A stretch of DNA of 64,000 nt, from positions 1,237-65,236 of IMG/VR virus record IMGVR_UViG_3300009514_000018; one strand, given 5' to 3'. Origin of the DNA: a virus. The notes below the pieces were generated by a model. It did no database searches. It was not told the origin of the DNA and saw only the letters and a program-made list of their open reading frames with translations. This document shows, in pieces, positions 1,702 to 54,737 of the stretch. The position numbers and the translations under genes were made by a program. Position 1 is the stretch's first letter. Every line of letters starts with the position of its first letter.

Positions 1702-3807
1702 ATGGGCAGCAACAAGCGGTATATTCACGGATCGGGAGCCCGGTACTTCCTCCGGGAGGAGGATCTCGATCCCCTCCCTTCCGAGGAGGAGAGCCCCAAC
1801 CTCGCGGCGGAGATCATGGTGACGGCGGCGGAGGGGCTGCAGGATCCCCTCCTGCTCGAGGATGGGGAAGCCGATCCGGAGTTCGACTACCTCTCGTCCG
1901 ATATGACCGACCAGGAGATCGCCCACGACGCCGTGGAGATCCTGGATGAGGGGGCCCTCCGGGAGCCCATTCTTCCTCCGGAAGAATGGATCGAGAAGAT
2001 CCACTTCGCGGGGCCGCACCAGTACGAACTCTGGCCCGGGGTGAAGGCTGACTTCGTCACCATAGTGAACCGCTTTTTGCATCGGGACACGAGCAAGAAC
2101 GAGGAGGGAAAAGAGGCGGAGGAGCCCCTGAATTTGGGCATCCTGACGGGCGGGATCGGGGCCGGGAAGACCCGATGTGCCGAGGTGGTCCTTCAGTACC
2201 TCATCTACTGGCTCCTCTGCCACGCCTCTCCGGCCAAGGCCATCGGCATGGTCGCCAGCGCCACTATCAACATCGCCATCTTCTCCACGAAGTTCGACAA
2301 GGCAAAAAAGGTGATGTACAAGCGCCTTCGGCGGTACATCGACAGCACCCCCTGGTTCAACGAAAATCACCCGCCAGATCACAACATTCGGAACTCGATG
2401 GAGTGGCCGGAAGGCATCGTTGTCGCGCCTTATCCTTCCACGGTTCAGTCCGCCATTTCGGAGGATATGTGGCTCGCGGTCCTCGATGAGGCCAACTTCT
2501 GGATCTCCAGCCCCGAGGCGGACCGGGTGGACGAGGTCTATCTCTCCCTTCGGCGAAGGATGAGTTCCCGCTTCGAGGAGTATGACGAGAGGTGGCTGAT
2601 TCTGGCCGTCTCTTCGGCCACGGATCACAACTCTTTCACCGAAAAAGTGAGGCCCGACGCGGGCATTATTCTGTCCAGATCCAAGTGGGAAGCGAAGGGC
2701 GAAACCTTCGAGGGGGAGCCCCGCTTCCTCATCGATCTCGGGAACCAGCAGGTGGCCCCCCGGATCGTCACCGACAGGAAGGACAAGATCCATGGCCGCC
2801 TCCTCCGGGTGCCCGTCCGGTTCCAGAAGTCGGCCAAGGCCGACCTGTCCAACTTCCTCCGTGAGACCTACGGTATCGGTGTGCAGACCCAGCGGCGCCT
2901 CTACGGGTCCTGGCTCCAGGGCTATCCGTGGGAGCCACCCACCTCAGAGGGGGACGAGTTCTACGTGGATCCCGATCCCGCAGCGGAGATCCCCAAGCCC
3001 CGGCTCCTCGACTCCCCCATTGGCAGGTGCATCCATGTGGACCTCGCCGTCTCGGGCGACTGGGCCGGTATCTCCTGCGGCTACGTGGAGGACACCGAGT
3101 GGAAGGAGGTAGAGGAGGGTATCATGGAGCTGGTCCCCCGGGTGGTGGCCGACTTCGTGATCCGCTGGCGCTCCAAGATCAAGGCCGAGGAGCTGCCCCT
3201 CGAGAAGGTGAGGGAGCTGATCATCTGGATCGCCCAGCATATCCCGGTCCTCCGGGTGACTTTCGACGGCTGGCAGAGCAAGGACTCTATCCAGCAACTC
3301 AACAAGCGGGGCATCGTGGCGGAGCTGCTCTCCGTGGACAGGTCCCCCGCCCCTCACCACTATCTCAAGCGCCTCCTCGCCGAGCGCCGGATCCTCGTCC
3401 CCTATTCCTCCGCCCTTGTCTCCGAGCTAATCAACCTCATCGTCAACCCTACCAACGGGAAGATCGACCACCCCAAGCGGGCCCGCGGGGAGGGGGTCAA
3501 GGGATCCAAGGATATGGCGGATGCCCTGGCCGGCATGGCCTACTCCTGTCACCAGACCCTCGAGGGCACCGCCGATGTCCTCGCCCCCGCTGATCTGGAG
3601 TTCGTCATTCTGGGTCAACCTCGAAATCGCCCAGTTGAACCTGGGAACGCCCTGGCTCAGGAGAAGCCAGGGGAGGAAGCTCCTTCTCAGAAGCCGCAGT
3701 CGTACCGGACCGTTTCCCAGAAGTCTTCGGCACAACCATTCGACGATGAGCCGCAACCGAGACGATTCTTGGGATCTCTTCACCGTTTGGTTCGTCCTGG
3801 AGGATAG
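1702..3807 (+). CDS. terL: Terminase large subunit
   Basis: Walker A GILTGGIGAGKT, Walker B LAVLDEA, nuclease motifs IHVDLA, VTFDGWQS and KDMADALAG. Confidence 0.93.
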   Translation: MGSNKRYIHGSGARYFLREEDLDPLPSEEESPNLAAEIMVTAAEGLQDPLLLEDGEADPEFDYLSSDMTDQEIAHDAVEILDEGALREPILPPEEWIEKIHFAGPHQYELWPGVKADFVTIVNRFLHRDTSKNEEGKEAEEPLNLGILTGGIGAGKTRCAEVVLQYLIYWLLCHASPAKAIGMVASATINIAIFSTKFDKAKKVMYKRLRRYIDSTPWFNENHPPDHNIRNSMEWPEGIVVAPYPSTVQSAISEDMWLAVLDEANFWISSPEADRVDEVYLSLRRRMSSRFEEYDERWLILAVSSATDHNSFTEKVRPDAGIILSRSKWEAKGETFEGEPRFLIDLGNQQVAPRIVTDRKDKIHGRLLRVPVRFQKSAKADLSNFLRETYGIGVQTQRRLYGSWLQGYPWEPPTSEGDEFYVDPDPAAEIPKPRLLDSPIGRCIHVDLAVSGDWAGISCGYVEDTEWKEVEEGIMELVPRVVADFVIRWRSKIKAEELPLEKVRELIIWIAQHIPVLRVTFDGWQSKDSIQQLNKRGIVAELLSVDRSPAPHHYLKRLLAERRILVPYSSALVSELINLIVNPTNGKIDHPKRARGEGVKGSKDMADALAGMAYSCHQTLEGTADVLAPADLEFVILGQPRNRPVEPGNALAQEKPGEEAPSQKPQSYRTVSQKSSAQPFDDEPQPRRFLGSLHRLVRPGG

Positions 3808-4165: not shown

Positions 4166-4370
4166 GTTCTCCTCCAGGGAAAAGGTAGTAGTCCCCAGTG
4201 TGATGGACGAGCGGGAGGATGTCAATACGTATTCAGTGGAACGGTACTTTTGGGTAAAGCACTTTGGGGCGCTTTAAGCAAGCGCCCGGGCCAGTGCGGA
4301 GCCCTTCGTTATTGTGAGGAATCACTACAACGATTCTTTTGTATATATCCGTCCTGCTAGGAGGAGTCTC

Positions 4371-4901
4371 TTACCAGGCAACCCACATGCCCATGGTTGG
4401 GTCGAAGCGGAAGGTCCTGGTCTCGTAGGGAACCGTGAATACGAAGTTGGGCGCAGGGGGTCCAACCAAGCCAGGGTAGACCACTCCAGGACCACCGAGG
4501 ACATCGACGGGGTTGCTGAGGGGATCCGGGACTGTCACTACGACAGTGTTGCCCGGGGCCATGAGGGGGGTGATGTCCAGGGTTACAGCTGCTGCGGAGC
4601 CATCCAGCAAGACGTGGTAGTCACCGATCACTGCAGGCTCGATGTGAGGGGCTGGTGGAGCAGGGGGCACCACCATCCGGATGTTCTTCATCTCGGGCCC
4701 AATCTGAATCTGACTGATCTGGACGCGCTCGCCGATTGCAGTCTCGGCGCAGGTCAGGAAGGTGGCCCCGGCCATGGACTTCATCTCCATGGTCACGCGA
4801 TCGTTGGGCTCGTCGTAGGCGACTTCGAGCACGGTTGCGGAGGGACCGCCGATCTCCTCTACCTGGATTCCGTCTTCTCCAAAAACTACTTTCTTTGGCA
4901 T
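4371..4901 (-). CDS. Hypothetical protein, beta-rich and virion-like
   Basis: AGGAG RBS, phage-typical codon usage, Pro/Val/Gly-rich beta sequence. Confidence 0.7.
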   Translation of the reverse strand: MPKKVVFGEDGIQVEEIGGPSATVLEVAYDEPNDRVTMEMKSMAGATFLTCAETAIGERVQISQIQIGPEMKNIRMVVPPAPPAPHIEPAVIGDYHVLLDGSAAAVTLDITPLMAPGNTVVVTVPDPLSNPVDVLGGPGVVYPGLVGPPAPNFVFTVPYETRTFRFDPTMGMWVAW

Positions 4902-4955
4902 CTTACTTCTCCTTCTGAGAGTTGGGTTCCAGGGTCACAAGCCTCTCAGCTGGGC

Positions 4956-5249
4956 TTAGCTGGGCTCGGTGCTCCAGCCGTTGGAGTCCAGGACGCCCTC
5001 GAGGTTATTGTTGATGTAGAACTCGATGGAGTTGTCCGTCGCGTTGAACTTCACGTAGGCGGTATTCGCCGCGTTCAGGTAGACGGTCTTCTCCCCGGTT
5101 CCGGTGTCCGTACTGACGAGGTTGTTCAGCACGATGATGACACGGTTGATGAAGTTCTCCAGGAGATCCTGGTACTTCTTTACGATTCCACTGCCGTCCA
5201 GCTGGCTTCTGCCATAGACGCGCCGAGTGCGGAGCAGCTCCAAAGCCAT
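4956..5249 (-). CDS. Hypothetical protein resembling a fibre segment
   Basis: AGGAGG RBS; sequence TVYLNAANTAYVKFNATDNSIEFYINN resembles fibre beta segments. Confidence 0.7.
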   Translation of the reverse strand: MALELLRTRRVYGRSQLDGSGIVKKYQDLLENFINRVIIVLNNLVSTDTGTGEKTVYLNAANTAYVKFNATDNSIEFYINNNLEGVLDSNGWSTEPS

Positions 5250-5421
5250 GATTTCTCCTCCTTTGCAGGTGGGTCCCTTGTATCCGTTCCTATGTTGTTA
5301 TTTCTCGCACAGTTCTGGGAGGATTTCAAGCGTACCTGCCCCATGAAAGAAAAGCCAACCGTTTTTCCTTCCACAGAGAATAAAATTTATCAAAGCGTAA
5401 TAGACTATCAGTATTCTCTGA

Positions 5422-5449
5422 TTGCCTTTTGTTCCAAGCCATGTAGGAT
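5422..5449 (+). promoter_or_regulatory. Possible sigma70-like promoter
   Basis: TTGCCT-N16-TAGGAT in an AT-rich divergent intergenic region. Confidence 0.4.
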
Positions 5450-5470
5450 GAGTAGTAGAGACAGCATTTA

Positions 5471-5488
5471 TGAATATGCGCATATTCA
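5471..5488. promoter_or_regulatory. Perfect 18-bp palindrome (candidate operator)
   Basis: TGAATATGCGCATATTCA, directly before the GGAG RBS of the 5499 gene. Confidence 0.6.
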
Positions 5489-5498
5489 CGGAGTAACT

Positions 5499-6116
5499 AT
5501 GGATTACCTGGAACTTGCGAGCAAACTCAAAATTTCACAGAATATGGCTCGCAATATGCTGTCCGACAGGGGAACATCGCCGTCTTTACGGAGCCTTCCT
5601 TTTGAGGACATCAAGGAGATCTATCGGAGGGGGACGGAGCGGGAAGGTAGAACCAACTTCTCCCAGTTACGACCCGAGGAGTGGAGCAAGGTTTTCGGGC
5701 AAGAATGGGAGAAGATTCGTCGCTGTATGCGGTTAGTCGGATTAGGTCTTTACTCGGCCAAGATGCCCATCTTGGAAATTCGTGCGCTCTTTTTGTGTGA
5801 ACCGACCGAAGATGAGCCTGGCGACGTAAGTGAGCGGTTTATGGGAGTTTTCTCACACAACCTCGCCAGGGATAGATGTTACCGCCCTACCCTGGTACGC
5901 TCCAATGGTGATGGATCCTTCTCCACAATTCTGGGCCTCAATGAGACTCAGAAGTTGATGAGGGACAAAACCAAGGGGTTCAAGGCTCATGTTTCCCAGT
6001 GGGAGCGATTGGTGCCAGGGATCACCCCCTTTCTGACCAAAAGGAGGGACGGATTCTATGAAACCACTGAATACGTCGAAGTGATACGTAAGAAAATCAG
6101 GCAATCCCCTACTTGA
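5499..6116 (+). CDS. Putative DNA-binding protein (N-terminal HTH-like, C-terminal degenerate ParB-like segment)
   Basis: Likely true start at ATG 5499 with GGAG RBS, inside the tracked 4314..6116 ORF. YLELASKLKISQNMARNML is HTH-like; RPTLVRSNGDGSFSTILG loosely resembles ParB-N. Confidence 0.5.
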   Translation: MDYLELASKLKISQNMARNMLSDRGTSPSLRSLPFEDIKEIYRRGTEREGRTNFSQLRPEEWSKVFGQEWEKIRRCMRLVGLGLYSAKMPILEIRALFLCEPTEDEPGDVSERFMGVFSHNLARDRCYRPTLVRSNGDGSFSTILGLNETQKLMRDKTKGFKAHVSQWERLVPGITPFLTKRRDGFYETTEYVEVIRKKIRQSPT

Positions 6117-6164: not shown

Positions 6165-6428
6165 ATGGAAGCTGTCGAGCCGGTTTACTTCTGGTGCCTT
6201 ATCTGCTCGCTCAGGACTGAGTGTGGGTCGCTTCAATGTGGTCCTTCCCGGTTTCCCAAGTTCTCCCCTCTCGAGAACTTGAGCCCCAACGTTTATTTCC
6301 TGTGTCCCCTATGCGGAGGTCCTACTGATGGCAGAAGAGAGCGGTGCAACTACTGTCGATGTGGCGAATCTGGAAGTCCGGAACCTGGGCGGGATGGATT
6401 CACCAACCGGCAAGGTAATCCGATCTAA
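6165..6428 (+). CDS. Small Cys-rich zinc-finger protein
   Basis: CLIC, CPLC and CNYC motifs; GAGG RBS; overlaps the portal start by about 100 bp. Confidence 0.4.
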   Translation: MEAVEPVYFWCLICSLRTECGSLQCGPSRFPKFSPLENLSPNVYFLCPLCGGPTDGRRERCNYCRCGESGSPEPGRDGFTNRQGNPI

Positions 6429-7926
6429 GCAGCTCCGCGATCCCTTCACCGAACTCTATCGGGAAGGGATCGTCATGGAGCCTCCCTTCGATCCTGACCT
6501 ATGGGCGGAGCTGGTCCTCATCTCCACTCGCTATAATCAGCTTCTCAGGGTCTATGCCAGGAACACGGCTGGTCTCGGGTGGAAGGTCGTTCCCACTGTG
6601 GAGATCTCCAGGAACTCTTCCGAGGAGCTGAAGAAGCAGGTAGCCACGGACATCGAAATTCTCAAGAAGTTCTATGGTTACCCCCATACTGCCGAGCAGT
6701 CACGGGTCTGGATGGAGGAGTCCTTCAGTGAGCTTCTCTTCAAGATGGCGGTGGATCGGGAGGCCATCGGCAACGGGTATCTTGAGGTCTCCAAGAACCT
6801 TCAGGGGAAGCCAGCGGGAGTGTGGCACATCCCGGGGTCTACTGTCAGGCTCAGGGCGGATCTCGAGGGTTTTGTCCAGTACTCTGCGGGTCATTCGGAG
6901 TTCGTCTACTTCAAGAACTTCGGTGACCCAAGGATCATGGACTCACGCTCTGGGGAGTTCGTTAACAAAGAGAAGGAAGAAATCCCCCTCAAGTATCATG
7001 CGAACGAGATCATCCACTTCCCTCTCTACTCTCCCATCTCGACTCACTATGGCTTCCCCAGGGGAATTGCCTCCAACCTGGCCATGACTGGTTCCAGGGC
7101 CGCGGCCTTGAGGAATTATGCTTTCTTCGATAACGACGCTGTTCCTCGAATGGCAGTCCTGGTTTCTGGCGGGTCTATTCCAGAGGCTTCCCTCCAGAGA
7201 ATGGAGGAGTACTTCGCGGCCAGGGGCAAGGGGGCTGACCTGGCTCATCGGGTGGTGGTCATCCACGCTCAGCCAGGGCAGGGGGTAGTAGCGGCGCCCA
7301 CCATCAAGCTCGAGCCTCTCACTGTCGGGAGCACTGATGATGCTTCCTTCACTACATATAGAGAGGCCAACGACAAGGAGTTGAGAGAGGCCTTCGGACT
7401 TTCCGAGCTTCACCTCGGTACCGAGGGGTCGGCCAACAGAGCAGCGGCCATGACCATTCTGCGGCTGGTCAACCAGCAGGAGTTCTTCCCTGCCATCCTG
7501 GAGTTGGAGTATCGCCTGAACGCGACCATTTCCAAGGCTCTTGGCGTTCAGACCTCGGCTCTCCAGCTTGTCAGGCCGAAGGCTACGGATCCTCTGGATG
7601 AGGCCAAAGTACTTCAGCGGGCCCTTCCTGCTGGGGCTGTCGCTCCCAGGGACTTCAGGAAGTGGATCGAGACTACGCTCGGTTTCGACTGGCCACCAAT
7701 GACTGAGCCCTGGACCGAGATTCCCTTCACCCTCCTCCTGACGCTCATCCGAGGTGAGCAGATTCAGCTCGGGGAGGCCGAGCAGATTCAAGAGTCGATG
7801 AGGGATATGGTCGATGAGTTCGATACCTCCAGCGATCAGGGGGCGGTCAAGGAGTTCATCGACGATCTGAACATCGGTCTTGAGGAGCTGAAGAATGCCA
7901 TCTCTCTCCAGTCTCAGCACAGATAA
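6328..7926 (+). CDS. Portal protein (PBSX/HK97-like)
   Basis: Motifs GNGYLEV, NEIIHF, YGFP and FFDNDAVPRMAVLVSGG; located after terL. Confidence 0.9.
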   Translation: MAEESGATTVDVANLEVRNLGGMDSPTGKVIRSKQLRDPFTELYREGIVMEPPFDPDLWAELVLISTRYNQLLRVYARNTAGLGWKVVPTVEISRNSSEELKKQVATDIEILKKFYGYPHTAEQSRVWMEESFSELLFKMAVDREAIGNGYLEVSKNLQGKPAGVWHIPGSTVRLRADLEGFVQYSAGHSEFVYFKNFGDPRIMDSRSGEFVNKEKEEIPLKYHANEIIHFPLYSPISTHYGFPRGIASNLAMTGSRAAALRNYAFFDNDAVPRMAVLVSGGSIPEASLQRMEEYFAARGKGADLAHRVVVIHAQPGQGVVAAPTIKLEPLTVGSTDDASFTTYREANDKELREAFGLSELHLGTEGSANRAAAMTILRLVNQQEFFPAILELEYRLNATISKALGVQTSALQLVRPKATDPLDEAKVLQRALPAGAVAPRDFRKWIETTLGFDWPPMTEPWTEIPFTLLLTLIRGEQIQLGEAEQIQESMRDMVDEFDTSSDQGAVKEFIDDLNIGLEELKNAISLQSQHR

Positions 7927-8308
7927 GCTGCGGCGTCGGCACGCTGCCCTCCACACAATTTACTCTTGGTTGGTCCAGGGGTTTCCCCAAGGGGACTGGG
8001 ACAAGGAGTCTTTGGCTGAAGCTCACGAGGCTTCGGCTAAGGAACTGGAGCGCCGAGGGATTCAGCACGAGTCCCCTCTGGGAGAGGGTAGGCCGGACAG
8101 GTCTTCTCACAGTCGCCATGATATCGGGGCTATGACAGACGACGAAGTTTTACATGTCCACGCCAACCTGCATAGCCTGGCCTCCAAGATTCGCCAGGGC
8201 GTTGTGGGTACTGGCTGGACCATGGAGCAGGTCATAGCGGAGCACGAAATTGTAGTTCCTGAGCTGACAGGTAGGGGCTTCGAACACAACTCACCACTTG
8301 AGGGATAG
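7895..8308 (+). CDS. Protein made of two His-rich ~58-aa repeats
   Basis: Two copies of H-x3-H...W...H...RG-x2-H-x-SPL; a third copy lies in the next gene. Confidence 0.75.
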   Translation: MPSLSSLSTDKLRRRHAALHTIYSWLVQGFPQGDWDKESLAEAHEASAKELERRGIQHESPLGEGRPDRSSHSRHDIGAMTDDEVLHVHANLHSLASKIRQGVVGTGWTMEQVIAEHEIVVPELTGRGFEHNSPLEG

Positions 8309-8310
8309 AA

Positions 8311-11300
8311 ATGACTGAAGGAGTATACGTAAGAGAGGTCCTTGCTGAACTCATCAAGAGCGGTGAGAAGACAGCTATCGTGTCTGGCTCTCCTATCAAG
8401 TGTTCTGAGGGGAAGGTCTTGGTTGGGGGTCGGAAGGCTCTTGGGATCGTAAAGCTGGGGTCTCCCGAGAAGATCAGCGGGACTGACTTTGACGAGCGAG
8501 CTGAGGCTCACATGATCTCAAAGGCTGACAAGAAGAAGCTCTGGCCGAGGAGGAAGATTCTCTTCTTCCACGAAATCGAGAGCTTCACTCCTTTTTCTGA
8601 GGAGCAGCCTGTTTCGAGCCATGGTCAGGCTGGCAACCTCATCAAGTTTTCCTTCGTGGAGGAGGGTAAGAGACATGCTGCCGTGATGCTGGATCTCGAT
8701 GGGACAGTCCGTGAGTCTACGGGGCCTGCTCCCTTTCCTTCTTCGGCGTCCGAGGTCAGACTCATCGAGGGTGTCATTCCCGCCATGATGGCTTGGCGGA
8801 GGAAGGGATATGCCCTCTTCGCTGTCAGCAACCAGGCTGGCGTAGCGAGGGGGACCATCACCGAGGAGGATTTCTGGGACACTTACAAGAGGACTCAGGA
8901 GCTTCTTGGTCCGGCAGCCTTCGATGATGTCCGGGTGGCCTTCGGTCCTGTGGAGTCTCCCGAGAGGAAGCCATACCCGACGATGGGGCTGGAGCTGGCC
9001 GCGGCCCATGATCTCTCTTTGAGGAATTCCTTCTATGTAGGTGATCGGGATGAGGATGCCGAATTCGCTGCAAACCTCAGCGTCTACTTCATTCCCTCCA
9101 GAAACCTCACTGGCTTCACTCCTCCAGATCTTGATTCCAAGCTGGTGCCCTTCCCATCCAAGCTGGTGAAGATGCAGCGGAACGAGGTCCTCGAGGACCT
9201 CAGTGACCAGGAGCTGCTCGGTGCCCACTATTATGCTCACTCCGCCTGGAACAAGCTGAAGGACGGCGGGAAGTTCGGGGACTGGACCAAGGAGGATGTG
9301 CAGACCTTCCACGACAGGATCGTCCGCGACATGGAGAGGCGTGGTATCCCCCATGACTCTCCCCTTAAGAGTCTCTCGAAGACGCCCCAGCTTCTCCGTG
9401 ATCACATTGTGGCCCACAAGAGCAACAACCAGGAGCTTCATGATCAAGCCGTGGCTGGACTCAAGGAAGCTGGTATCGAGCATCCAGGGATGTCGGAGGA
9501 CAACTCCATGGACAAGTCCTGGGTCCAGAAGGGAGGTTTCCTTCCGGTAGGTGGCTCCGGCGTCCAGAAGGGCACAGAGGTCCTCAAGGTTGAGGACATC
9601 GTTGAGAAGCTTGCTGGTCATACGGCTCACCTTCGTATGCCCTTCGTTTACCTGACCGGTGGTCTCGTGAACCGCGGGGAGACCGAGGGGGACATCGACA
9701 TTTTGCTTCGCTGCGAGGATGGGGAGCTGGGTGACAAGCTGACTCGCCTTATCCAGTGGAGAATCCTGAGATCCCTCCCCAAGGAACAGTGGGATCGGGT
9801 AGAGTTCCTCTTCGACGAGGATCATGGTCCCTTCACGAGCCACATCCCCCTCTTCGCGCTGACCCTTACTCCCTTGGAGCCCCAGGAGATCAAGATGGCT
9901 CTGGAGAAGGCCCAGGCGGAGATTAGCAAGTCGGTGAGAGTGGGCTCCTTCTTCAAGATGGTGAAGCCTATCAAGCCCGCTAAGCCAGGTCAGCGTCAGA
10001 GCCCCGAGGCCTTCTTGGAGCTATTCACCGGGGGATGGCCCTGGGAAGTCACCAAGAAGTACGATGGGGTTCACGTCCAGGTCCACAAAAGCGGCGACTC
10101 GGTGAAGATCTTCACTGAGGATGGGACGGACATCACCTCCAAGGTCCCCGGCGTGATCAAGGTTGTCAAGGAAGTTGTTCCTGGAACAGCGATTCTGGAC
10201 GCGGAGCTGGAGAAGTGGGATGGACGAACTCACATCCCGAGAGAAGAGGCAGCAGCTTTCCTCAACTCCAAGGAGGGAGACGACATCGGTGTACTCCTCA
10301 ATGTCTTTGACATGCTGCACAACGGTCAGGATCTTACTGGTCAGCCTCTCTCAGCTCGCCGGGCCCAGATGAAGAAGGTTTCCTGGCCCCAAAGCACAAT
10401 GGGCGTCCCTTCTCACTCTGCCAGGCTCAACATGGCTCCCGCCGTAGAGGTGAAGGATAAGAAGGAACTGAGCGAAGCTCTCAGCAAGATTCGGTACTTA
10501 CCTGGGTCTGAGGGTGTCGTCGCCAAGAAGCTGGACTCTACCTATCCCACTGGGAAGGATCGGACCAACGATTGGGTCAAGTTCCACAACGTCGGGGTGG
10601 TGACCGGAGCTGTCATCGAGCGAATCGAGACCAAGACCAAGGGGGTGTACAACTACCTTCATGGTCTTCGTCGTGGCGACCGTGCAGTGGTTGATCCTGT
10701 TGTCCAGGCCGGGGAGTTCAGGGTGGTTCCAGCGGGGAAGACTTTCTCCTCCGATAGAAAGTTCGAGCCCGGAGATCTCATTCCCATCGAGTTCGAGACC
10801 TTCAACTACTTCGTGCAGGACGATGGCCAGGTGAAGGTGTCCCTCTGGGCACCCCGTATTCTGGATGAGGAGCCTGCTGAGGCTCCCCACACCATCGGTG
10901 ATGCGATGAAGATTGCTGAGAAGGAGAAGATCCTTTCCAGCAAGCTTCCTGACGAAGAAGAGCAGGAAGAAGGCAAGGAAGAGGAGAAGGCTCAGGAGGA
11001 AGTGGATAAGGCCCCCGCCGAGATCTCCGAGGAGGTAGGCCTGGAGGGCGAGGATCCTGTAGCGGCCATCGTTGGGAAGGCGGCCATGGGAGTAGGCCTC
11101 TTCGGTGCCTCCGCGTCCAGAGAGGTAGAGTCTTCCATATGGAAGTCTGCTGTGGAGGTTTTCGATGGGGACGGGGTGGTCTTTTCGGTTGGGAGGGAGT
11201 ATGAGGCTAGCGGTACTGATTTCGTTCATCTGGCTGATACTCTGTCTGCTTGCAAGGGAGGCTGGGTGATCGAGGTCGGGAAGAAGCATGGTCCCTATCT

Positions 11301-13209
11301 CGACTACATGGCTCTCAAGGGAGCTGAGGTCGCCACAGAGACAGAAGAGTCCGTCTTCTTCGCCAAGGCTGGGCTGACAACAGAGTCCTTCGATTCGGGA
11401 GGGCGTCTCGCCTCTGAGCAAGGCAACCGGTTCGAGCGGCCCTGGGAGGAGCTGGGGTGGAAGAAGCCCAGCTTCAAGAGTGGTGGTGAACCAGGAACCT
11501 TCATCCACGCGAGGGTAACGGATGATCTCTTTCCTTACCTTGCCGATGCCTGGGAAGTCCTCCTTGAGTCAGGTGGAACTCCAGAGTTCTATCCCCATGT
11601 GACTATTCTCTACAAGCCCAACGAGACGGTGGAGCTGCCAAAGGATCTTCCAGCCAATGTGCAGGTGAAGCTTGAAGCCGCCCCTGACAAGTTCAGGGGC
11701 TTCGATGGAGACAATGGGATCTGGCTTCCAGTCAGGTCGCCTCAGGCTGCGGAGCTTCATGAGCGACTCGAGGAAGAAGAGGGGAAGATCTTCACTCCCC
11801 ACATCACCATCGGCTACATCGATGATCCTGATAGGGCTCTCGGTCGCATCAGAGAGATCTTCGAAGGGGTTCAGCTGGAGTGGTTAGGAGATATCTTTGC
11901 CTCCTACCGCAAGAAGTTTTTGGAGAAGGGGAGTGACCCCTACATGGACGCTCCTCCCGAAGGAGAGGGTAGGGACTACATCTTCCAGCGACACTTTAGA
12001 GGCAAGACCGAACATATCGACTTCCGGATCAAGGGGAGCAAGGGTTTCCTTATCGGTTGGACCATCGCCGATCTCATAGCCGGGGCCATCAAAGATCCCG
12101 TGGAGACGGTCGAAGAGGCCAAAGCGATCCCCCAGAGTGCCTTCAAGGTGAACCTCGATACCGGAGAGTTCGTGCGTCGTCCTCCCCGGGAGGGTCAAAA
12201 GGAGGGGGCCCGGGCTGAGATCGTGGCTCGGAGGAAGGCACCGGAACCTCTCCCTTGGATGGAGGTCGAGGGGGTGGTTCCAGCAGGGAAGGGTACGGAA
12301 GAGGGTATCTCTCCCGGGGCGACCAAGAACTTCCCTGGTGTCTTCATCATCGACGGGAAGGGGAAGCTCCACTTCGGGACCCAGAAGCCTCACTTCCATG
12401 AGTACTTCCTCGAGGACGGCCCCATCAAGGGGCGGCTCATGTTCCGACAGCTCTCCACCGAAGCTATCGAGAAGGGCTTCTTGGAGGAGGGGGTAGTCAA
12501 GGCCATGGTTACTGTCCCCTCGGAGGAGCAGGACTTCAAGAGTGAGCTGGCCTGGTTTGCTATCCAGCCGGAGGATCAGGAACCATACGTTCTCTCCAAC
12601 AGGGCGTCCAAGCAGGGATGGATTCCGTCGAAGGGAGTGTCTGCCCTTCCTCTATGGGTGAAGAGCAAGATCCCGGATGAGTTCCAGTACTGGGCGCATT
12701 CAGAGGAAAAGAAGCGTAAAGAGGTGCGTGACGCACTCAGGGAATCCATAAAGAGGGATGAAACGAAGGTTTCTTTCGAGAAAAAGGCCGAATCAGGGGA
12801 TTTCTCTATTCAGCGACAAACTTTTCGGGGTCAGACTGTAGTCAGGGAGGGCCCTTCCCTGACGAAGTGGCACTTCACTGTACGGAACGGAGAGAAGTTT
12901 CATTTCCTCGCTGAAGGACCGGATCCTTTCAAGGAATCCGAGGCTTCATTTCTCTTGACAGAGGGTTTCCCATACGACAAGATGTTCTCTGAAGGTGATG
13001 TTCCCCCTGGAAGCCCCTTAAATGACACGAAAGACACTCCTTCCTCTATCGAAGTCGTTGATCGAGGTAAGGCTACAGTCCTTATTGACAATCTCGATGC
13101 GAAGAAGGTAGAGATCAAGGGAAAGAAGATTAACGGGGTCTTTTTCTTCCGCAAGGGGGAGGGAGATATCTGGACGATGACCAGGTCGAAGGGACCGGAG
13201 GTGGAGTGA
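8311..13209 (+). CDS. 1632-aa multidomain nucleic-acid end-repair protein (ASCH-like, HAD phosphatase, nucleotidyltransferase, ATP-dependent ligase, 2H phosphodiesterase, LigD PE-like x2)
   Basis: DLDGT, SNQAG, RKP and VGDRDED (HAD-IIIA); LTGGLV..GDIDIL (Pol-beta NTase); KYDG, LDAEL, VFDML, EGVVAK and WVKF (ligase); PHVT and PHIT (2H); FQRHFRG..HIDFR..GW (LigD PE-like). Confidence 0.85.
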   Translation: MTEGVYVREVLAELIKSGEKTAIVSGSPIKCSEGKVLVGGRKALGIVKLGSPEKISGTDFDERAEAHMISKADKKKLWPRRKILFFHEIESFTPFSEEQPVSSHGQAGNLIKFSFVEEGKRHAAVMLDLDGTVRESTGPAPFPSSASEVRLIEGVIPAMMAWRRKGYALFAVSNQAGVARGTITEEDFWDTYKRTQELLGPAAFDDVRVAFGPVESPERKPYPTMGLELAAAHDLSLRNSFYVGDRDEDAEFAANLSVYFIPSRNLTGFTPPDLDSKLVPFPSKLVKMQRNEVLEDLSDQELLGAHYYAHSAWNKLKDGGKFGDWTKEDVQTFHDRIVRDMERRGIPHDSPLKSLSKTPQLLRDHIVAHKSNNQELHDQAVAGLKEAGIEHPGMSEDNSMDKSWVQKGGFLPVGGSGVQKGTEVLKVEDIVEKLAGHTAHLRMPFVYLTGGLVNRGETEGDIDILLRCEDGELGDKLTRLIQWRILRSLPKEQWDRVEFLFDEDHGPFTSHIPLFALTLTPLEPQEIKMALEKAQAEISKSVRVGSFFKMVKPIKPAKPGQRQSPEAFLELFTGGWPWEVTKKYDGVHVQVHKSGDSVKIFTEDGTDITSKVPGVIKVVKEVVPGTAILDAELEKWDGRTHIPREEAAAFLNSKEGDDIGVLLNVFDMLHNGQDLTGQPLSARRAQMKKVSWPQSTMGVPSHSARLNMAPAVEVKDKKELSEALSKIRYLPGSEGVVAKKLDSTYPTGKDRTNDWVKFHNVGVVTGAVIERIETKTKGVYNYLHGLRRGDRAVVDPVVQAGEFRVVPAGKTFSSDRKFEPGDLIPIEFETFNYFVQDDGQVKVSLWAPRILDEEPAEAPHTIGDAMKIAEKEKILSSKLPDEEEQEEGKEEEKAQEEVDKAPAEISEEVGLEGEDPVAAIVGKAAMGVGLFGASASREVESSIWKSAVEVFDGDGVVFSVGREYEASGTDFVHLADTLSACKGGWVIEVGKKHGPYLDYMALKGAEVATETEESVFFAKAGLTTESFDSGGRLASEQGNRFERPWEELGWKKPSFKSGGEPGTFIHARVTDDLFPYLADAWEVLLESGGTPEFYPHVTILYKPNETVELPKDLPANVQVKLEAAPDKFRGFDGDNGIWLPVRSPQAAELHERLEEEEGKIFTPHITIGYIDDPDRALGRIREIFEGVQLEWLGDIFASYRKKFLEKGSDPYMDAPPEGEGRDYIFQRHFRGKTEHIDFRIKGSKGFLIGWTIADLIAGAIKDPVETVEEAKAIPQSAFKVNLDTGEFVRRPPREGQKEGARAEIVARRKAPEPLPWMEVEGVVPAGKGTEEGISPGATKNFPGVFIIDGKGKLHFGTQKPHFHEYFLEDGPIKGRLMFRQLSTEAIEKGFLEEGVVKAMVTVPSEEQDFKSELAWFAIQPEDQEPYVLSNRASKQGWIPSKGVSALPLWVKSKIPDEFQYWAHSEEKKRKEVRDALRESIKRDETKVSFEKKAESGDFSIQRQTFRGQTVVREGPSLTKWHFTVRNGEKFHFLAEGPDPFKESEASFLLTEGFPYDKMFSEGDVPPGSPLNDTKDTPSSIEVVDRGKATVLIDNLDAKKVEIKGKKINGVFFFRKGEGDIWTMTRSKGPEVE

Positions 13210-14807
13210 TGAATTTGAACACTGAAACCTTCCCGGTCGAGGTCAGCTACGCTGTTCCCATTCTGAAAGCCAGCGAGAATCCCCGGACTGGAGACTGGGT
13301 CGTTGAGGGCTTTGTTGCCACAGCCGACTTAGATCTTCAGGGGGACGTGATCACCGAGAGCGGACTCAAGGAGGGGGCCGAGACGCTCAACGAAGCCAAG
13401 ACTCTCCTCTGGAACCATGACGTAAACCAGCCCATTGGAAAACTCCTCCTTGCCAAGGTGAAGGACAATGGGATCTGGGTGCGAGCCGTTGTCGATAAGA
13501 CCTCGGAGATGGGTCAGCAGGTCTGGAAGTGGGTCAAGGAAGGGATCATCTCGCGTTTCTCGATCCGGGGAGATGCACTGGCTTCGACAAAGGGGTACAT
13601 CAAGGGTAAGCTGGTCAACCTTCTGACCAAGCTTCGCCTCATCGAAGCTTCTCTTGTCACCCTCCCAGCGAATCCAAAAGCCGAAGTAATGAACTGGTAT
13701 GTGGCCAAGTCCTTTGAGGGCTACTACAGGCCTATAGAGGAATTCTTCCACCAGGAAGTGATTCCTCTCGTTTCTACGGAGACCGGATTCGAGGGGACGG
13801 TGGAGGTGGGAAAGCTGGCCGGGGATGTTGCTGAGGGCATCGAGGCCTCCCCTACCGTGTGTAAGAACAGCGACTCCAATCCCGTGGGCGTAGTGGAGGA
13901 GGTAGCCAAGATCGATGACGGCAACCTCTATCTCAAGATCCGCTACGCTTCCTCGGCCCAAGGAACCGAAGGTGGTGTCTTTGTCCGCGGGAAGATCTTG
14001 AAGTCAGGCAATAGTGAGGTCCTGGGATTCCTTCCCCGGGGCGTATGGATTCTCGACAAGGAGACAGCCATGAACAAGAACTTGGAAGGGGCCCAGGATG
14101 CCATCAAGCAGCTGTCGGCGCTCGGTGAGCAGCTGAAGGGCCTGCAGGATCAGTTCGCAAAGATGACCGAAACCATCTCCAAGCTCAAGGTGGAGGAGCC
14201 CAAGGTGGAGCAGCACGCTGGCTCGACCAAGGCTCAGATGCCTGAGGAAGAGGAGAAGGAGTGCAAGCCTCTCGAGGAGAAGGCTCAGATGCCTCCCGAG
14301 GAGAAGCCCACCGAGGAACCCTCGGTGAAGGCGACTCCCAAGGAGGAGGAGAAGCCCCCCGAGGAGCCTTCCACGATGGCCGACAAGCCCGAGGAGAAGC
14401 CCATGGAGGAGGAGAAGGCCGAATCTCCCAAGGAGGAGAAGTATCCCCTCCCCGAGCCCAAGAATAGGGACGAGGCGAAGTCCACCCTGAAGAGGGTGCT
14501 CCTTCTCGCCGCCAGGGCTCTCAGCAAGGGCCAGTACGAAGATATTGCCAAGAAGCTCGAAGGCCTCAGCGAGGCCGAGATGGAGGAGCTGAGTAAGAAC
14601 CTCCTCGAAGAGAAGAAGGACAATACCCCCGCCGCCAGTTCCGATTCGACCGCGATCCTCGAGGCCATCAAGAGCCTCCAGGAGACCATCTCGCAGGCGC
14701 CCGCCTTCCAGAAGGGTGACTCCAAGGGTGGCAGGGTCGAGAAGAAGGGTGACGAGATTCCCTGGACTTCCGGGTTGGTGTACCCCCACTTCAACCAGGA
14801 GCAGTAG
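13209..14807 (+). CDS. HK97-type prohead protease fused to a C-terminal scaffold-like region
   Basis: VEGFVAT..DLQGD, LLWNHD, FSIRG and EASLVTLPANP motifs; E/K/P-rich coiled-coil C-terminus; TGATG coupling to the upstream gene. Confidence 0.9.
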   Translation: MNLNTETFPVEVSYAVPILKASENPRTGDWVVEGFVATADLDLQGDVITESGLKEGAETLNEAKTLLWNHDVNQPIGKLLLAKVKDNGIWVRAVVDKTSEMGQQVWKWVKEGIISRFSIRGDALASTKGYIKGKLVNLLTKLRLIEASLVTLPANPKAEVMNWYVAKSFEGYYRPIEEFFHQEVIPLVSTETGFEGTVEVGKLAGDVAEGIEASPTVCKNSDSNPVGVVEEVAKIDDGNLYLKIRYASSAQGTEGGVFVRGKILKSGNSEVLGFLPRGVWILDKETAMNKNLEGAQDAIKQLSALGEQLKGLQDQFAKMTETISKLKVEEPKVEQHAGSTKAQMPEEEEKECKPLEEKAQMPPEEKPTEEPSVKATPKEEEKPPEEPSTMADKPEEKPMEEEKAESPKEEKYPLPEPKNRDEAKSTLKRVLLLAARALSKGQYEDIAKKLEGLSEAEMEELSKNLLEEKKDNTPAASSDSTAILEAIKSLQETISQAPAFQKGDSKGGRVEKKGDEIPWTSGLVYPHFNQEQ

Positions 14808-14870: not shown

Positions 14871-16343
14871 ATGAGCTGGATGCTGCAGAACGAACAGCGT
14901 ATCCGCAAGGCTTTGGAGGCCTTTGAGAGTGGGGCCTTCGCGCACGGTGGCGCACTGAACCCCGAGCAGGCCAAGCAGTTCCTGCGGATCATCAGAGACA
15001 ACACGGCGGCCCTCGGCGCCATTCGCCTCGAGGAGATGGATCGTCTCCAGAAGGATATCGACAAGCTCTTTATCGGGGAGCCGGTGTCCGAGCACGTTCT
15101 CGAGGGACATGGACCTCCCGCCGCCAACGAGGTTCGCAGACCCGTGTTCGCACGGGTGCAGCTGGACTGCAACAACAAGAAGATCCGTTCCGTGTGGCCT
15201 GCCACCACGGAAGCCCTGCAGACTGGTATCGAGCGGGGCCGTCAGATGGAGCAGACCCTCTTCGAGTCCGCCGTGCAGAAGGTGGGCGACGATCAGGAGT
15301 TCCTCTTCTGGCAGGGTGATACCGCCTTCGCCGGTGGGATCACCCCCGCCGCCAAGCTCCTCGAGACCACCGACGGTATCGGCAAGATCTCCAGGGGAGC
15401 CCATATTCTCGACGCCGAGGGCGCTGTGATCTCCCACGAGCTGTTCGCCGTGGCGATCCGCACCCTTCCCAAGCACGTCATCCCCAGGCCGGATCTCCGA
15501 TGGTGGATGTCCGTGAACACCGCGATCGACTGGATGTCCGTCTTCGGTGACAGGCAGACCGGTGGCGGAGATGCGGCCATCGAGGGCAGGATGATCAAGC
15601 CCTACGGTATCCCCATCTTTTCCAAGAGCTACGATGGTGTGGAGCGCTACGGCGTGCCCCACATCCCATCGGATCTCCCCCTGCCCGTGTCCACCGACAG
15701 CCCGGCCTATGCGAAGGGCGTGCTGAACGGACCCTTCACCATCGATGCGACTCCCGGCTCTCCCACCAAGAACAATCTCCTCGAGCTGCAGCTCGATGGT
15801 GTGGCGGCTAACGTCGTGATCACGTTGCCTGCGGGCGTCTGGACTGTGTCCGAGATCGCCGGGTTCGTCAATGAGGATCTGGCTGCGGATGTGAATTACG
15901 GAATCAACTACGCTCACGTCGCCTCGAACGACGGCTTCGGCCACCTGGTCTTCGAGAGCCCCACTGTGGGCGCCGCTTCCAACATCAGCCTGCATTCCAC
16001 CACTCCGGCTGGTGAGCAGGCCTACACAACCTTCGGGTTCCCCAGCCCCGGTGTGGGCCCCATCCCTGATCCCATGTCATACGATGGTGAGACGGGAGCT
16101 TCCGGTGACGCGGTGGTTTACGAGGGCAGCTGGTTCCTCCTCTCTCCCGCCAAGCTGATGATCATGGGTCTCTATACCGGCCCCGCTGGTGGCCAGAGGA
16201 AGACCGGTCTCAGGGTCTACTCCGACTTCCGTCCCGAGGAGGATACCCTCAAGCTCTTCATCTACTGGCAGACCGATGTCAAGGTGGAGAACCTGGACGC
16301 CATGGTCCGCGTGGACAACGTCCGTCAGCTCAACCTGGCCTAA
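14871..16343 (+). CDS. Major capsid protein with an inserted domain
   Basis: Follows the protease; GGAGG RBS; GALNPEQAKQFL N-terminal motif of P2/PBSX-like capsid proteins; strong codon bias. Confidence 0.88.
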   Translation: MSWMLQNEQRIRKALEAFESGAFAHGGALNPEQAKQFLRIIRDNTAALGAIRLEEMDRLQKDIDKLFIGEPVSEHVLEGHGPPAANEVRRPVFARVQLDCNNKKIRSVWPATTEALQTGIERGRQMEQTLFESAVQKVGDDQEFLFWQGDTAFAGGITPAAKLLETTDGIGKISRGAHILDAEGAVISHELFAVAIRTLPKHVIPRPDLRWWMSVNTAIDWMSVFGDRQTGGGDAAIEGRMIKPYGIPIFSKSYDGVERYGVPHIPSDLPLPVSTDSPAYAKGVLNGPFTIDATPGSPTKNNLLELQLDGVAANVVITLPAGVWTVSEIAGFVNEDLAADVNYGINYAHVASNDGFGHLVFESPTVGAASNISLHSTTPAGEQAYTTFGFPSPGVGPIPDPMSYDGETGASGDAVVYEGSWFLLSPAKLMIMGLYTGPAGGQRKTGLRVYSDFRPEEDTLKLFIYWQTDVKVENLDAMVRVDNVRQLNLA

Positions 16344-18283: not shown

Positions 18284-19224
18284 TGAGTGCAATCGGAAGT
18301 GCCCACATACTCGGTCCTCGAGGGACTGAGCTTCCGAGTGATGCCCCTGAAGGAGATCAGTTCTTCCATCTGCGTAAGAAGGCTTATTTCTCTCGGAGGG
18401 GAGATGCCTGGGTCCCCACTGCGTCCCTCTGTGATTCGATCCCTTTCGTCTCCGCTCCCCCTCGAATAGTGCTGGGTGAGCCTGGAGGTCGGTGGGAAGG
18501 GTGGTTTTTCAGTACCGGCTCCTGGGTGGCAGGCCTCAATGAACCGTTTCCTCTCCGTGTCTCTCATCGGGGTCAGGGCTTTGCCCTGGCTTGGCATCCC
18601 ATGGTGGAGTCCCTGGTTTCCCAGGAAATTTCTACTTCCTTTGCCAGGCCAGCTGGATCCATGGTGGGAGTTGTGGTGGGAGCGCGTACCTCTACTCAGG
18701 GTTACCTGGTAACCCTTCGGGATAATGACCTGGCGATCCTTCGAATGAAGGCGGGCAATAGGGGTTTTGGTCTTGTCGAGTCGGTGTCCATCCCCAATAG
18801 GGAAGATTTCGTCGATCGAGAAGTCACTCTGAAGGTCGAGCGGGTTGGGAAGTCTTCCCTGAAGGCCAAGGTGTGGCCAGTGGGTTTGGAGGAGCCGGAC
18901 TGGCAGCTGGAGACTCAGGATATCTCACCTTTCCAGGGAGAAGGAAAGGGCAAAGTCGGATTGGTCGTGAAGTGGGGAGAGATTGAGTTCTTGTCCTTCC
19001 AGGCGATGGAAAGGTTCCCTGACATTCCTGTTAAACACAGCATCCCGGTTAGGCCGAAGGTAAGCGTCTTTCTAGATGGTGAAGCTGCTTCCAATGTTAG
19101 TTTCAAGGTCTTGGATCCTACGACGCTGGCTTTGTGTGGCTTTCAGGTAGCGGGTAGATCAGGGGAAGTGCAGGTCAGGGCTCATCTTCCAAGCGCAAGA
19201 TCTGGAATGAGGAGGAGACCATGA
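18283..19224 (+). CDS. Putative fibre-associated protein with a ConA-like beta-sandwich segment
   Basis: Coupled ORF; N-terminal fibre-knuckle-like motif; SLKAKVWPVGLEEPDWQLE lectin-like motif. Confidence 0.55.
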   Translation: MSAIGSAHILGPRGTELPSDAPEGDQFFHLRKKAYFSRRGDAWVPTASLCDSIPFVSAPPRIVLGEPGGRWEGWFFSTGSWVAGLNEPFPLRVSHRGQGFALAWHPMVESLVSQEISTSFARPAGSMVGVVVGARTSTQGYLVTLRDNDLAILRMKAGNRGFGLVESVSIPNREDFVDREVTLKVERVGKSSLKAKVWPVGLEEPDWQLETQDISPFQGEGKGKVGLVVKWGEIEFLSFQAMERFPDIPVKHSIPVRPKVSVFLDGEAASNVSFKVLDPTTLALCGFQVAGRSGEVQVRAHLPSARSGMRRRP

Positions 19225-51633: not shown

Positions 51634-52268
51634 ATCTCTTCCTTGGGGGCCCAGGCAGGCATAGTCCACTTCATCAGCCAGCAGATATCCCTCAACATGG
51701 GCTCCACATAGTGGCTCCCCTTGAACCTGACCAGGCCTTCCTCGGTGATGGTGCAGAAGCCCTTCCACCAGGTCTTCTTGGGGGCGTTGGTTGTTTTGGT
51801 GACTGCTCCATCGGTGCTGAACATGTAGTTTGCTCTGACCGTTCCGTCGTCAAACCAGGCCTTGAAACAGATATGATCTGGGGTCTCCTCTGGACACCAT
51901 ATGCGGATGTGGACGAAGTCTATCTCGCATCGGAGGTACTTCTTGTTCTCGATCAGGTTGTGGTGCCGAATCCAGGTGGCAGCTTCGGAGATCAGCTCGT
52001 CGGTGGCGGTGATATGCTGCATCTGCTTGCTCACCGCCTCCATGGAGTTCACGGCGTGGGCTTTCAGGGCCCAGTTGTCTTCCGGTCCATCGCGGTAGAT
52101 GATTTCGCTGATCTTCCACCTCCCCTGGGCCAAGCTCCTGCCAACCACCCGATCACCTACCTCGAAGGGGCACTCGGTGTTGGCGATGGCCTTCTCGAGA
52201 AGATGGACTTCTACCAAGGCGTTCTCCCTTTGCTGGTGGAGCTTCTTCAACTCCTCTGCGTTACCCAT
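51630..52268 (-). CDS. Hypothetical protein
   Basis: GGAAG-rich RBS; 212 aa; last gene of the - strand arm. Confidence 0.7.
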   Translation of the reverse strand: MGNAEELKKLHQQRENALVEVHLLEKAIANTECPFEVGDRVVGRSLAQGRWKISEIIYRDGPEDNWALKAHAVNSMEAVSKQMQHITATDELISEAATWIRHHNLIENKKYLRCEIDFVHIRIWCPEETPDHICFKAWFDDGTVRANYMFSTDGAVTKTTNAPKKTWWKGFCTITEEGLVRFKGSHYVEPMLRDICWLMKWTMPAWAPKEEI

Positions 52269-52605
52269 CCTTCTTCCTTCCTTTCAGCCTGTGCATCGGG
52301 TTGGCCGACTTGATCTCGAAGCCGCCCTTCACCTTGGTGTAGATGAAGGGATCCTGAGCGAGCTTGATGATGTTCTGGTCGAGGATGTTGGATCGGCCCG
52401 TGGCAAAGGCATTGAGGTCGAAGGGGATGAAGAGCGTCTGCTCCGGGCTGTTCCGCATGTGGTAGGCCAGGGCAACGGCCATCATGAACACTTCCACCGG
52501 CTGCTCATAGACTGCAGTGGCTTTGGGATCCTTCTTGGGCCCGGGATCGGCCCTGACATCGGGCCCGAGATTAAGTTGCACTTCCTTTTTCTTCTTCTCG
52601 TTCAT
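52261..52605 (-). CDS. Hypothetical protein
   Basis: Likely start MNEKKKK at 52605 with GGAG RBS, inside tracked ORF 52261..52788. Confidence 0.65.
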   Translation of the reverse strand: MNEKKKKEVQLNLGPDVRADPGPKKDPKATAVYEQPVEVFMMAVALAYHMRNSPEQTLFIPFDLNAFATGRSNILDQNIIKLAQDPFIYTKVKGGFEIKSANPMHRLKGRKKDG

Positions 52606-53401: not shown

Positions 53402-53402
53402 C

Positions 53403-53648
53403 TTATGCTAAACCTTTTTCTTTTGCCCGCACCAAGATTTGATCTGCTATTTTCTTTTTACGAGGGAGATACCTCTGCGCGGAGGAATAGATAATGCGAT
53501 GAATCGTTGCGAGCTTCTTGAAGCCTGAAATTCTCAATGATCCTATTCTTGGATCTACGCGCTTTTCTAGAGATCTCGCTGGTGTCAGGGACAGTTGTGT
53601 AAGCGAGGCTAATTCTGATCGGAGTCTTTCTAAGAAGGGCTTAGCCAT
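53403..53648 (-). CDS. Small basic hypothetical protein
   Basis: GGAGG RBS before ATG at 53648; lower-GC codon usage. Confidence 0.45.
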   Translation of the reverse strand: MAKPFLERLRSELASLTQLSLTPARSLEKRVDPRIGSLRISGFKKLATIHRIIYSSAQRYLPRKKKIADQILVRAKEKGLA

Positions 53649-54129: not shown

Positions 54130-54135
54130 GATTCC

Positions 54136-54390
54136 TCACATCGCAACGAATAGCTGCTCCACCGTTACCCCGCCTTTCAGGCAGATGATGCAGGCGAAGC
54201 CGATGATGAAGATGCCCAAGATGACCCAGTACCAGTGGGGCAGGTTCCGTGGGTGAAGTCTGGGTAGCTCTTCATAGTTGGGGTTTGGCTCCTTGCAAAG
54301 GATGCTCAGGATTGCGCGGCCCAGAAGAAATGCTCCAAGGATCCCTATGATGTTTCCTGGTACGACTAGGCTAAGATCCCATCCGCTCAT
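54136..54390 (-). CDS. Small two-transmembrane protein
   Basis: ATG at 54390 coupled to the upstream stop; two hydrophobic segments (IIGILGAFLLG.., WVILGIFIIGFACII). Confidence 0.6.
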   Translation of the reverse strand: MSGWDLSLVVPGNIIGILGAFLLGRAILSILCKEPNPNYEELPRLHPRNLPHWYWVILGIFIIGFACIICLKGGVTVEQLFVAM

Positions 54391-54725: not shown

Positions 54726-54737
54726 GTGATTCCTCCT

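Follow-up and report, generated by a model that had tools for sequence, protein, structure and literature searches.

The 1632-amino-acid (aa) protein encoded at positions 8311-13209 (+) of a stretch of the virus record IMGVR_UViG_3300009514_000018 is a chain of enzyme domains built around a DNA ligase. The window is the whole 64,000-nucleotide (nt) stretch that was analyzed, and all numbering follows it. The parent IMG/VR record is 75 kilobases (kb) and is estimated to be ~57% complete. The gene is a single open reading frame (ORF) of 1632 codons without internal stops and sits between the portal gene and the S78 prohead protease gene, as a first-pass annotation made from the sequence alone had proposed. 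Its recognizable domains include a HAD-IIIA phosphatase, an ATP-dependent DNA ligase, a 2H phosphoesterase, and a pair of LigD-type phosphoesterase (PE) domains, and the catalytic motifs are intact. The protein belongs to a large family with a conserved position in the head module and with frequent fusions to a prohead protease. There is an even chance that it is a multi-enzyme that is produced alongside the head proteins, loaded into the capsid, and brought into the host together with the genome, where it would heal 3' ends and seal breaks in DNA.

The head-module position is shared by relatives of the protein. A search with a 12-sequence alignment found 80 IMG/VR viral loci. Upstream neighbors, available for 59 loci, include MuF proteins (16), Mu-type portals (8), and members of the Phage_portal family (5). 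Downstream neighbors, available for 64 loci, include S78 proteases (10), XkdF proteases (7), and capsid proteins (~8). Divergent viruses whose portals belong to three different families share the slot.

Protease fusions are the second sign of a link to the head. Domain counts refer to 152 proteins, i.e., the 1632-aa protein and its best 151 relatives by score; counts out of 151 come from searching the relatives with pieces of the 1632-aa protein, and counts out of 152 come from iterative searches that include it. An XkdF-type prohead protease is fused to 52 of the 152. The protease is C-terminal to the PE pair in 51 of the 51 fusions placed by direct phmmer search, and this order is the order of the overlapping genes in the window. 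The stop codon of the large ORF overlaps the start of the protease gene (TGATG), which suggests that the two are translationally coupled. Fusion to MuF, portal, or capsid-processing peptidase domains has been taken as a sign of head packaging (PMC9503650; PMC5512222). Because of the head-module linkage and the fusion of a third of the sampled proteins to a protease, the 1632-aa protein is probably carried in the virus head.

Two relatives from independent assemblies, P0002 and P0003, are colinear with the 1632-aa protein at 44-50% identity, except for the insert at residues 880-1206, which both lack. Thus, an assembly chimera, which the first-pass annotation had named as a danger, is unlikely for most of the protein. 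Their loci also have the same gene order as the window, i.e., portal, small ORF, large ORF, and next head gene. In ANMV-1 (L001, KP703175.1), the family homologue, annotated as 'ATP-dependent DNA ligase', comes after the portal gene. This portal is probably AJP62005.1 (L001:1913-3190), which is annotated as 'MutT-like phage hydrolase' and matches portal family PF06381 (E 3.2e-22). The relative P0004 has no ligase; a MuF gene lies upstream of it, and the downstream gene is a fusion of Dam methylase, ligase, and XkdF protease. At locus L008 of a related virus, the set is divided in another way: a 1140-aa protein (L008:10001-13423) contains AdoMet decarboxylase-like, ASCH-like, and nucleotidyltransferase domains with the PE pair, and the next gene (L008:13420-15765) encodes a protein of 782 aa in which a Dam methylase, a DNA ligase, and an XkdF protease are joined.

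The main alternative is an unpackaged, cytoplasmic enzyme, i.e., the phage's own replication and repair ligase with end-cleaning accessories that merely lies in a late operon. The 1632-aa protein holds the sole ligase domain of the 75-kb record, which encodes PolA, RecA, a helicase, and a nuclease with no separate ligase, so that a role in replication or repair is possible. The early module is the expected place for a replication ligase, however, and the incompleteness of the record means that another ligase may lie outside it. The recurrence of a gene position with portal or MuF on one side and protease or capsid genes on the other, together with the physical fusion of a third of the compared proteins to a prohead protease, makes a cytoplasmic enzyme unlikely.

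Action at the portal or procapsid of the producer cell would also account for the head-module linkage and the protease fusions. The enzyme would then seal nicks or trim DNA during packaging, or process genome ends, and would do nothing after injection. Nicked DNA is a poor packaging substrate in some phages, which counts for such a role. The same evidence fits injection equally well, and the co-occurring Dam methylases and 2H domains resemble proteins that are predicted to be injected (PMC5512222; PMC9503650). Activity confined to the producer cell is decidedly unlikely.

Most of the domains named in the first-pass annotation withstood analysis. All of its motif coordinates (DLDGT, KYDG, and EGVVAK) are correct, and the ASCH-like N-terminus, the HAD-IIIA phosphatase, the 2H phosphodiesterase, and the PE pair with its degenerate second copy are each supported by the matches given below. 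Two calls stand in part: the ligase is clear but the OB fold assigned behind it has only a non-significant alignment, and the Pol-beta nucleotidyltransferase has a conserved motif but no significant Pfam or fold match.

The C-terminal region is made up of the two LigD-type PE domains. Relatives of the last 433 aa, which have no Pfam match, were collected, 53 were aligned, and the segment was folded with AlphaFold2 (mean predicted local distance difference test score, pLDDT, 89.7). The top seven Foldseek matches of the model in the PDB are all LigD PE structures (E 2.8e-5 to 1.5e-3). The top five Swiss-Prot fold matches are all LigD, with a match of the first domain to the N-terminal PE of P. 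aeruginosa LigD. VIA-align of model residues 294-430 against 3p43, 3p4h, and 3n9b gives Z scores of 15.6, 14.8, and 13.0 and root-mean-square deviations (rmsd) of 2.0-2.8 Å; the best alignment, over residues 1493-1629 of the second PE domain (Z 15.6, rmsd 2.0 Å), pairs 117 of 124 residues.

The catalytic motif of the first PE domain is QRH-x6-HIDFR (nt 11986). Its residues H1228, H1235, D1237, and R1239 are invariant in the 53 sequences, and G1231, T1251, K1309, W1316, and G1336 are also family-invariant. Two archaeal PE proteins, 3p4h at E 3e-5 and 3p43 at E 2.9e-4, align with the profile of this domain over the motif. In P. aeruginosa LigD, the metal/phosphate-binding residues are H42, H48, D50, and R52, with His84 and Tyr88 in the second shell. 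The motif columns of the second domain are without His and Asp. Judged by these residues, the first copy is active-looking, divergent, and rich in long inserts, and the second is degenerate.

The ligase domain matches DNA_ligase_A_M (PF01068) over residues 580-758 (E 5.9e-23, 82.1 bits, cut-off 26.2). Its motifs are KYDG with K583 (nt 10057), LDAELE, and EGVVAK (nt 10510). Across 50 sequences, K38, D40, G41, E87, E89, E189, G190, K194, and K212 (numbering of that comparison) are conserved. The family profile of the ligase matches human Lig1 and archaeal ligases with E ~1e-20. Only DNA-ligase families are matched, and the domain is closer to Lig1 and the archaeal ligases than to LigD. The conserved region that follows is present in many relatives.

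The N-terminal half begins with a probable ASCH-like domain. This assignment is supported by a family-profile match to the hypothetical protein of PDB entries 1wk2/2dp9 (E 1.4e-6 over 110 residues) and by Atlas clusters that score 0.94 against the N-terminus, 15-18% of whose members carry ASCH (PF04266). Pfam itself gives no PF04266 match to the N-terminus or the record, loose thresholds included. The HAD-IIIA phosphatase that follows (matched over residues 124-260) is above cut-off for TIGR01662 (51 bits, cut-off 44.6) and for PF08645, the PNK3P family (24 bits, cut-off 22). Its motifs I-IV are intact (DLDGT 128, nt 8692; SNQ 173; RKP 219; GDRDED 244).

The His-rich hairpin repeats are followed by a probable minimal nucleotidyltransferase of the Pol-beta superfamily. 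The latter has the motif GG-x10-DID at residues 450-463 (nt 9658), where G450, D461, and D463 vary little or not at all among 52 sequences. Sequence matches are sub-threshold (PF14792, E 0.035; TdT, E 0.25, on the motif), and NTP_transf_2 (PF01909) has no match in the record even at loose thresholds. A model of the hairpins and nucleotidyltransferase (pLDDT 78.6) has no significant PDB match (best Foldseek E 0.28); its Foldseek matches to MNT-type and other putative nucleotidyltransferases are non-significant. A wide VIA-align search with the same piece returns generic helical hairpins only (Z <= 7.2), and its matches among AlphaFold database (AFDB) clusters are mainly unnamed family members. 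The hairpin region has a match to Pyr_excise (PF03013) that is below cut-off (E 0.0016, 19.2 bits, cut-off 23). The DenV-like glycosylase that this match suggests was dropped because nothing else backs it.

The small ORF upstream of the 1632-aa ORF encodes a 137-aa protein made of the same type of hairpin. It is paralogous to residues 294-353 of the large protein (BLASTP E 2e-11 and 9e-10; also a search of the own genome), and a gap of 2 nt separates its stop codon from the ATG of the large ORF. A syntenic ORF of 133-134 aa is present in L005-L007. The 137-aa protein might be a docking or targeting unit. AFDB-cluster matches of similar hairpins are small stand-alone proteins and part of one DNA methylase.

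The insert between the ligase and the PE pair is composed of an acidic linker, an orphan domain, and the 2H phosphoesterase. Linker residues 881-925 are 40% Asp and Glu. No relative of residues ~926-1055 was found by Pfam, by the family search, or in Atlas (query 905-1065). The 2H domain matches PF13563 with 30 bits on the whole protein and with 36.7 bits (E 5.2e-9) on the isolated piece (cut-off 27). In PHROGs, the only match of the 1632-aa protein is a weak one to 'RNA ligase', which falls on the 2H domain.

Destruction of immune signals is one role that this 2H domain could have. It would degrade cyclic oligonucleotides like Acb1, and the other domains of the chain would be secondary. Both HxT motifs are intact (HVT, H1096, nt 11596; HIT, H1164, nt 11800), and there are weak matches to Acb1 (E 0.006) and 2H-SAK (E 0.027). 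Such a role has been predicted for head-associated 2H domains (PMC5512222; PMC9503650). Both matches are under the Pfam cut-offs, however, just 10 of the 152 proteins have the domain, and the conserved core of ligase and PE would be left unexplained. As the main role of the protein, signal destruction is very unlikely.

RNA repair was one of the analogies drawn on by the first-pass annotation, which had cited T4 Pnkp and Rnl1 mending nuclease-cut tRNA. The 2H domain, the PNK3P-like HAD domain, and an ASCH-like domain that may bind RNA are compatible with a role in countering anticodon nucleases, as is a Thg1-like gene near the head module of a related virus. The analogy fails on three counts. 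A Walker A P-loop motif is missing from the 1632-aa protein and an AAA_33-type kinase match from the 75-kb record, so that on its own the chain could not join the 5'-OH ends that anticodon nucleases produce. Its sealing domain falls among the DNA ligases and not with the Rnl or RtcB enzymes. Ligase and PE form the core of the family, in which few members have HAD or 2H. RNA repair is barely plausible. DNA is the more probable target because of the DNA-ligase family, the frequent methylases, and the missing Walker A motif and AAA_33 kinase. The Thg1-like 3'-5' nucleotidyltransferase gene (L005:2914-3696, -) lies ~6 kb upstream of the head module on the 141-kb contig that bears P0003; Thg1 has no Pfam match in the 75-kb record, even at loose thresholds.

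The family defined by the PE pair is composed of at least 865 clusters at 50% identity (E <= 1e-3), with 313 at E <= 1e-30, and its proteins range from 335 to 2337 aa. The accessory domains vary across the family: Dam methylase is present in 30 of the 152 proteins, and nine relatives have a related 2H domain at other positions (further counts in Table 1). Pfam searches of 27 long relatives agree and add inteins, Nudix, metallo-beta-lactamase, and C5-methylase domains. Among relatives P0006-P0152, several long ones bear inteins with LAGLIDADG homing endonucleases inside the polyenzyme. Public databases label members 'DNA ligase' at most, and no paper describing a head-module ligase-PE family was found in the searchable literature. 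The first reading had found the domain combination unfamiliar. The 1632-aa protein is unusual for its HAD domain and for the orphan-plus-2H insert between ligase and PE pair, but it is otherwise a member of this large family. It is best filed as a variant within the known class of head-associated multidomain phage proteins. The term 'polyprotein' in the first-pass annotation goes beyond the evidence, as it presumes processing of the chain.

LigD is one of the closest known systems; the core of the 1632-aa protein would work like it, but the protein is not a LigD. LigD has POL, PE, and LIG domains, and both proteins combine an ATP-dependent DNA ligase, a PE-fold 3'-end cleaner, and a nucleotide-adding domain (putative in the 1632-aa protein) in one chain. 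The His-His-Asp-Arg motif of LigD and of the stand-alone archaeal PE proteins (3n9b, 3n9d, 3p43, 3p4h, 5dmp) is kept in the first PE domain. In contrast to LigD, the ligase is nearer to Lig1 and archaeal enzymes, a small, probable Pol-beta-type domain replaces the primase-polymerase, the PE domain is duplicated with an apparently inactive second copy and long inserts in the first, and the gene is viral and lies in a head module. Ku has no match in the record, and AEP primase-polymerase has no Pfam match in the 1632-aa protein.

Polyvalent and head-packaged effectors (Iyer et al. 2017, PMC5512222; Iyer et al. 2022, PMC9503650) also have many domains and are encoded beside portal or MuF genes. 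The 1632-aa protein has at least eight domains in one chain and a head-module position, as is typical of polyvalent proteins. Such proteins are predicted to be packaged and injected, contain 2H, Nudix, methylase, and Pol-beta nucleotidyltransferase domains, and can be fused to capsid-processing peptidases (PMC5512222; PMC9503650). Their 2H domains are never seen with RNA ligases, and neither an ATP-dependent DNA ligase nor a LigD PE is named among their components (PMC5512222). Unlike in these proteins, a ligase-PE core defines the present family, and the 1632-aa protein has no MuF domain.

T4 proteins provide two further comparisons. With Pnkp and Rnl1/Rnl2, the 1632-aa protein shares a putative 3'-phosphatase of the DxDxT (HAD) type, a ligase, and a heal-then-seal logic; unlike them, it lacks a 5'-kinase and has a ligase of the DNA-ligase family, and its gene lies in the head module and not among early genes. 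T4 internal head proteins such as Alt and IPI go into the prohead during assembly and are later injected. The 1632-aa protein resembles them in being co-expressed with the prohead protease, but no capsid-targeting sequence was identified here. DNA 3'-phosphatases without a kinase are represented by yeast Tpp1 and plant ZDP. The kinase-less HAD-IIIA domain would likewise suit nicks with a 3'-phosphate and a 5'-phosphate, its putative substrate.

The proposed mechanism, in which enzymatic activity, DNA substrate, encapsidation, and source of breaks are all predictions, begins with loading of the protein into the procapsid alongside head proteins, followed by delivery with the genome. Blocked 3' ends would be converted to 3'-OH by up to three activities: HAD-IIIA as a 3'-phosphatase, 2H as a phosphodiesterase acting on cyclic or 2'-5' ends, and the first LigD-type PE domain as a further 3'-end cleaner. 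The small nucleotidyltransferase may extend an end by a nucleotide, and nicks with a 5'-phosphate would be closed by the ATP-dependent DNA ligase. The second PE fold and the ASCH-like domain would probably act as nucleic-acid binders. Damage to the virion DNA and host nucleases are both possible sources of the breaks, which could also be the genome's own ends.

Several further observations weigh against a packaged and active repair enzyme. Carriage of the protein in the virion, as proposed from a MuF slot, draws real if indirect support from the recurring slot and the fusions, but a Pfam search found no MuF domain in the protein or the record, and the 1632-aa protein is itself not fused to a protease. 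Ligase motif V is VKFH family-wide (residues 756-759, 10576-10587), where His replaces the second Lys of classical ATP-dependent ligases. Residues 761-880 are probably an OB domain, but this assignment is weak: PF04679 has no match in the residues after the ligase core, and the alignment of this region with the Lig1 motif VI region is non-significant. The Pol-beta nucleotidyltransferase assignment, drawn from the conserved motif and sub-threshold matches, is also weak. The position of LigD His84 is Glu by profile alignment (EDH..Y of 3p4h with KAPEP..W), and Tyr is matched by Trp. LigD_N (PF13298) has no match in the record even at E 10; among relatives, P0004 reaches 18.6 bits (cut-off 31.1), and two of the 27 long relatives match at E <= 0.001 (best 2.5e-5). 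The best-scoring HAD subfamilies are histidinol and heptose (sugar-phosphate) phosphatases, each under its own cut-off, so that polynucleotide 3'-phosphate is a tentative substrate.

A wider proposal, which is tentative and falls somewhat short of an even chance, is that many tailed phages, and possibly archaeal tailed viruses, carry a capsid-borne machine for DNA break repair. Its parts would be a ligase, 3'-end cleaners of the LigD type and of other types, a nucleotidyltransferase, and in many cases a methylase. Loaded via the prohead protease and released with the genome, it would mend virion DNA that was damaged outside the cell or cut on entry. On this proposal, the 1632-aa protein, in which three different chemistries would clean 3' ends, would be the most elaborate version among those compared. 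Base-excision repair enzymes are present in the virions of some large eukaryotic viruses, and the capsid machine, if real, would be their equivalent in phages.

If packaging and activity both hold, phages supply the infected cell with enzymes of their own that seal DNA and clean its ends. This would bear on how virions survive environmental DNA damage, on how phages withstand restriction and nicking defenses, and on how linear genomes are closed after entry. As the 1632-aa protein demonstrates, the accessory slots of the family can acquire HAD and 2H end-healing domains. Compact chains of ligase, PE, and phosphatase are also potentially useful enzymes.

Table 1. Features of the window, with the domains of the 1632-aa protein and their occurrence in the family.
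Feature	Residues	Positions (strand)	Occurrence	Remarks
Large terminase gene		1702-3804		
Conserved 600-aa ORF		4314-6113		Between terminase and portal
Portal gene		6328-7923 (+)		Upstream anchor of the slot; PF04860 E 2.1e-20, phrog_12 E 2.6e-30
137-aa ORF		7895-8305 (+)		Two tandem copies of a ~58-aa His-rich helical hairpin
ASCH/PUA-like domain	1-115	8311-8655 (+)	22/151 relatives	
HAD-IIIA phosphatase	121-262	8671-9096 (+)	3/152 proteins	PNK3P / GmhB / HisB-N type
His-rich helical hairpin repeats	285-410	9163-9540 (+)	30/151 relatives	Helices in predicted model
Probable minimal Pol-beta-superfamily nucleotidyltransferase	411-545	9541-9945 (+)	51/151 relatives	
ATP-dependent DNA ligase adenylyltransferase domain	546-760	9946-10590 (+)	85/151 relatives	
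Post-ligase conserved region	761-880	10591-10950 (+)	71/151 relatives	Probably OB domain
First half of insert	881-1055	10951-11475 (+)	Orphan domain 1/152, the 1632-aa protein alone	Acidic linker, then ~130-aa orphan domain
2H phosphoesterase	1056-1206	11476-11928 (+)	10/152 proteins	
First LigD-PE-like domain and helical linker	1207-1421, linker to 1490	11929-12780 (+)		With insertions
Second LigD-PE fold	1491-1632 and stop	12781-13209 (+)		Degenerate
Prohead protease (S78) gene		13206-14804 (+)		PF04586 E 3e-10, phrog_80 E 1.3e-18
XkdG-like capsid protein gene		14871-16340		
814-aa protein		19221-21662		Right-handed beta-helix (PF13229, E 8.9e-28); tail-fiber PHROG matches
Dam methylase		52571-53398 (-)		Stand-alone
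SF2 helicase		55820-57112 (-)		
PD-(D/E)XK nuclease		58797-59630 (-)		Weak match
RecA		60009-61175 (-)		Bacterial type
Family A DNA polymerase (PolA)		61510-63390 (-)		With 3'-5' exonuclease

The replication and recombination module occupies 51630-63393 on the minus strand. The bacterial-type RecA, the XkdG-like capsid protein, and this module together suggest a bacterial host. An archaeal host, prompted by the ANMV-1 match, was set aside given the bacterial-type RecA, PolA, and the XkdG-like capsid protein. A single-peptide-pattern scan of a genome collection returned three contigs of metagenome-assembled genomes, binned to bacteria and archaea, which carry little weight for host range.

The ORF of 600 aa that separates the terminase and portal genes is matched by neither Pfam nor PHROGs, and its position is filled in L005-L007 by ORFs of 581-599 aa. 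The 814-aa protein downstream of the head genes is probably a depolymerase-type fiber.

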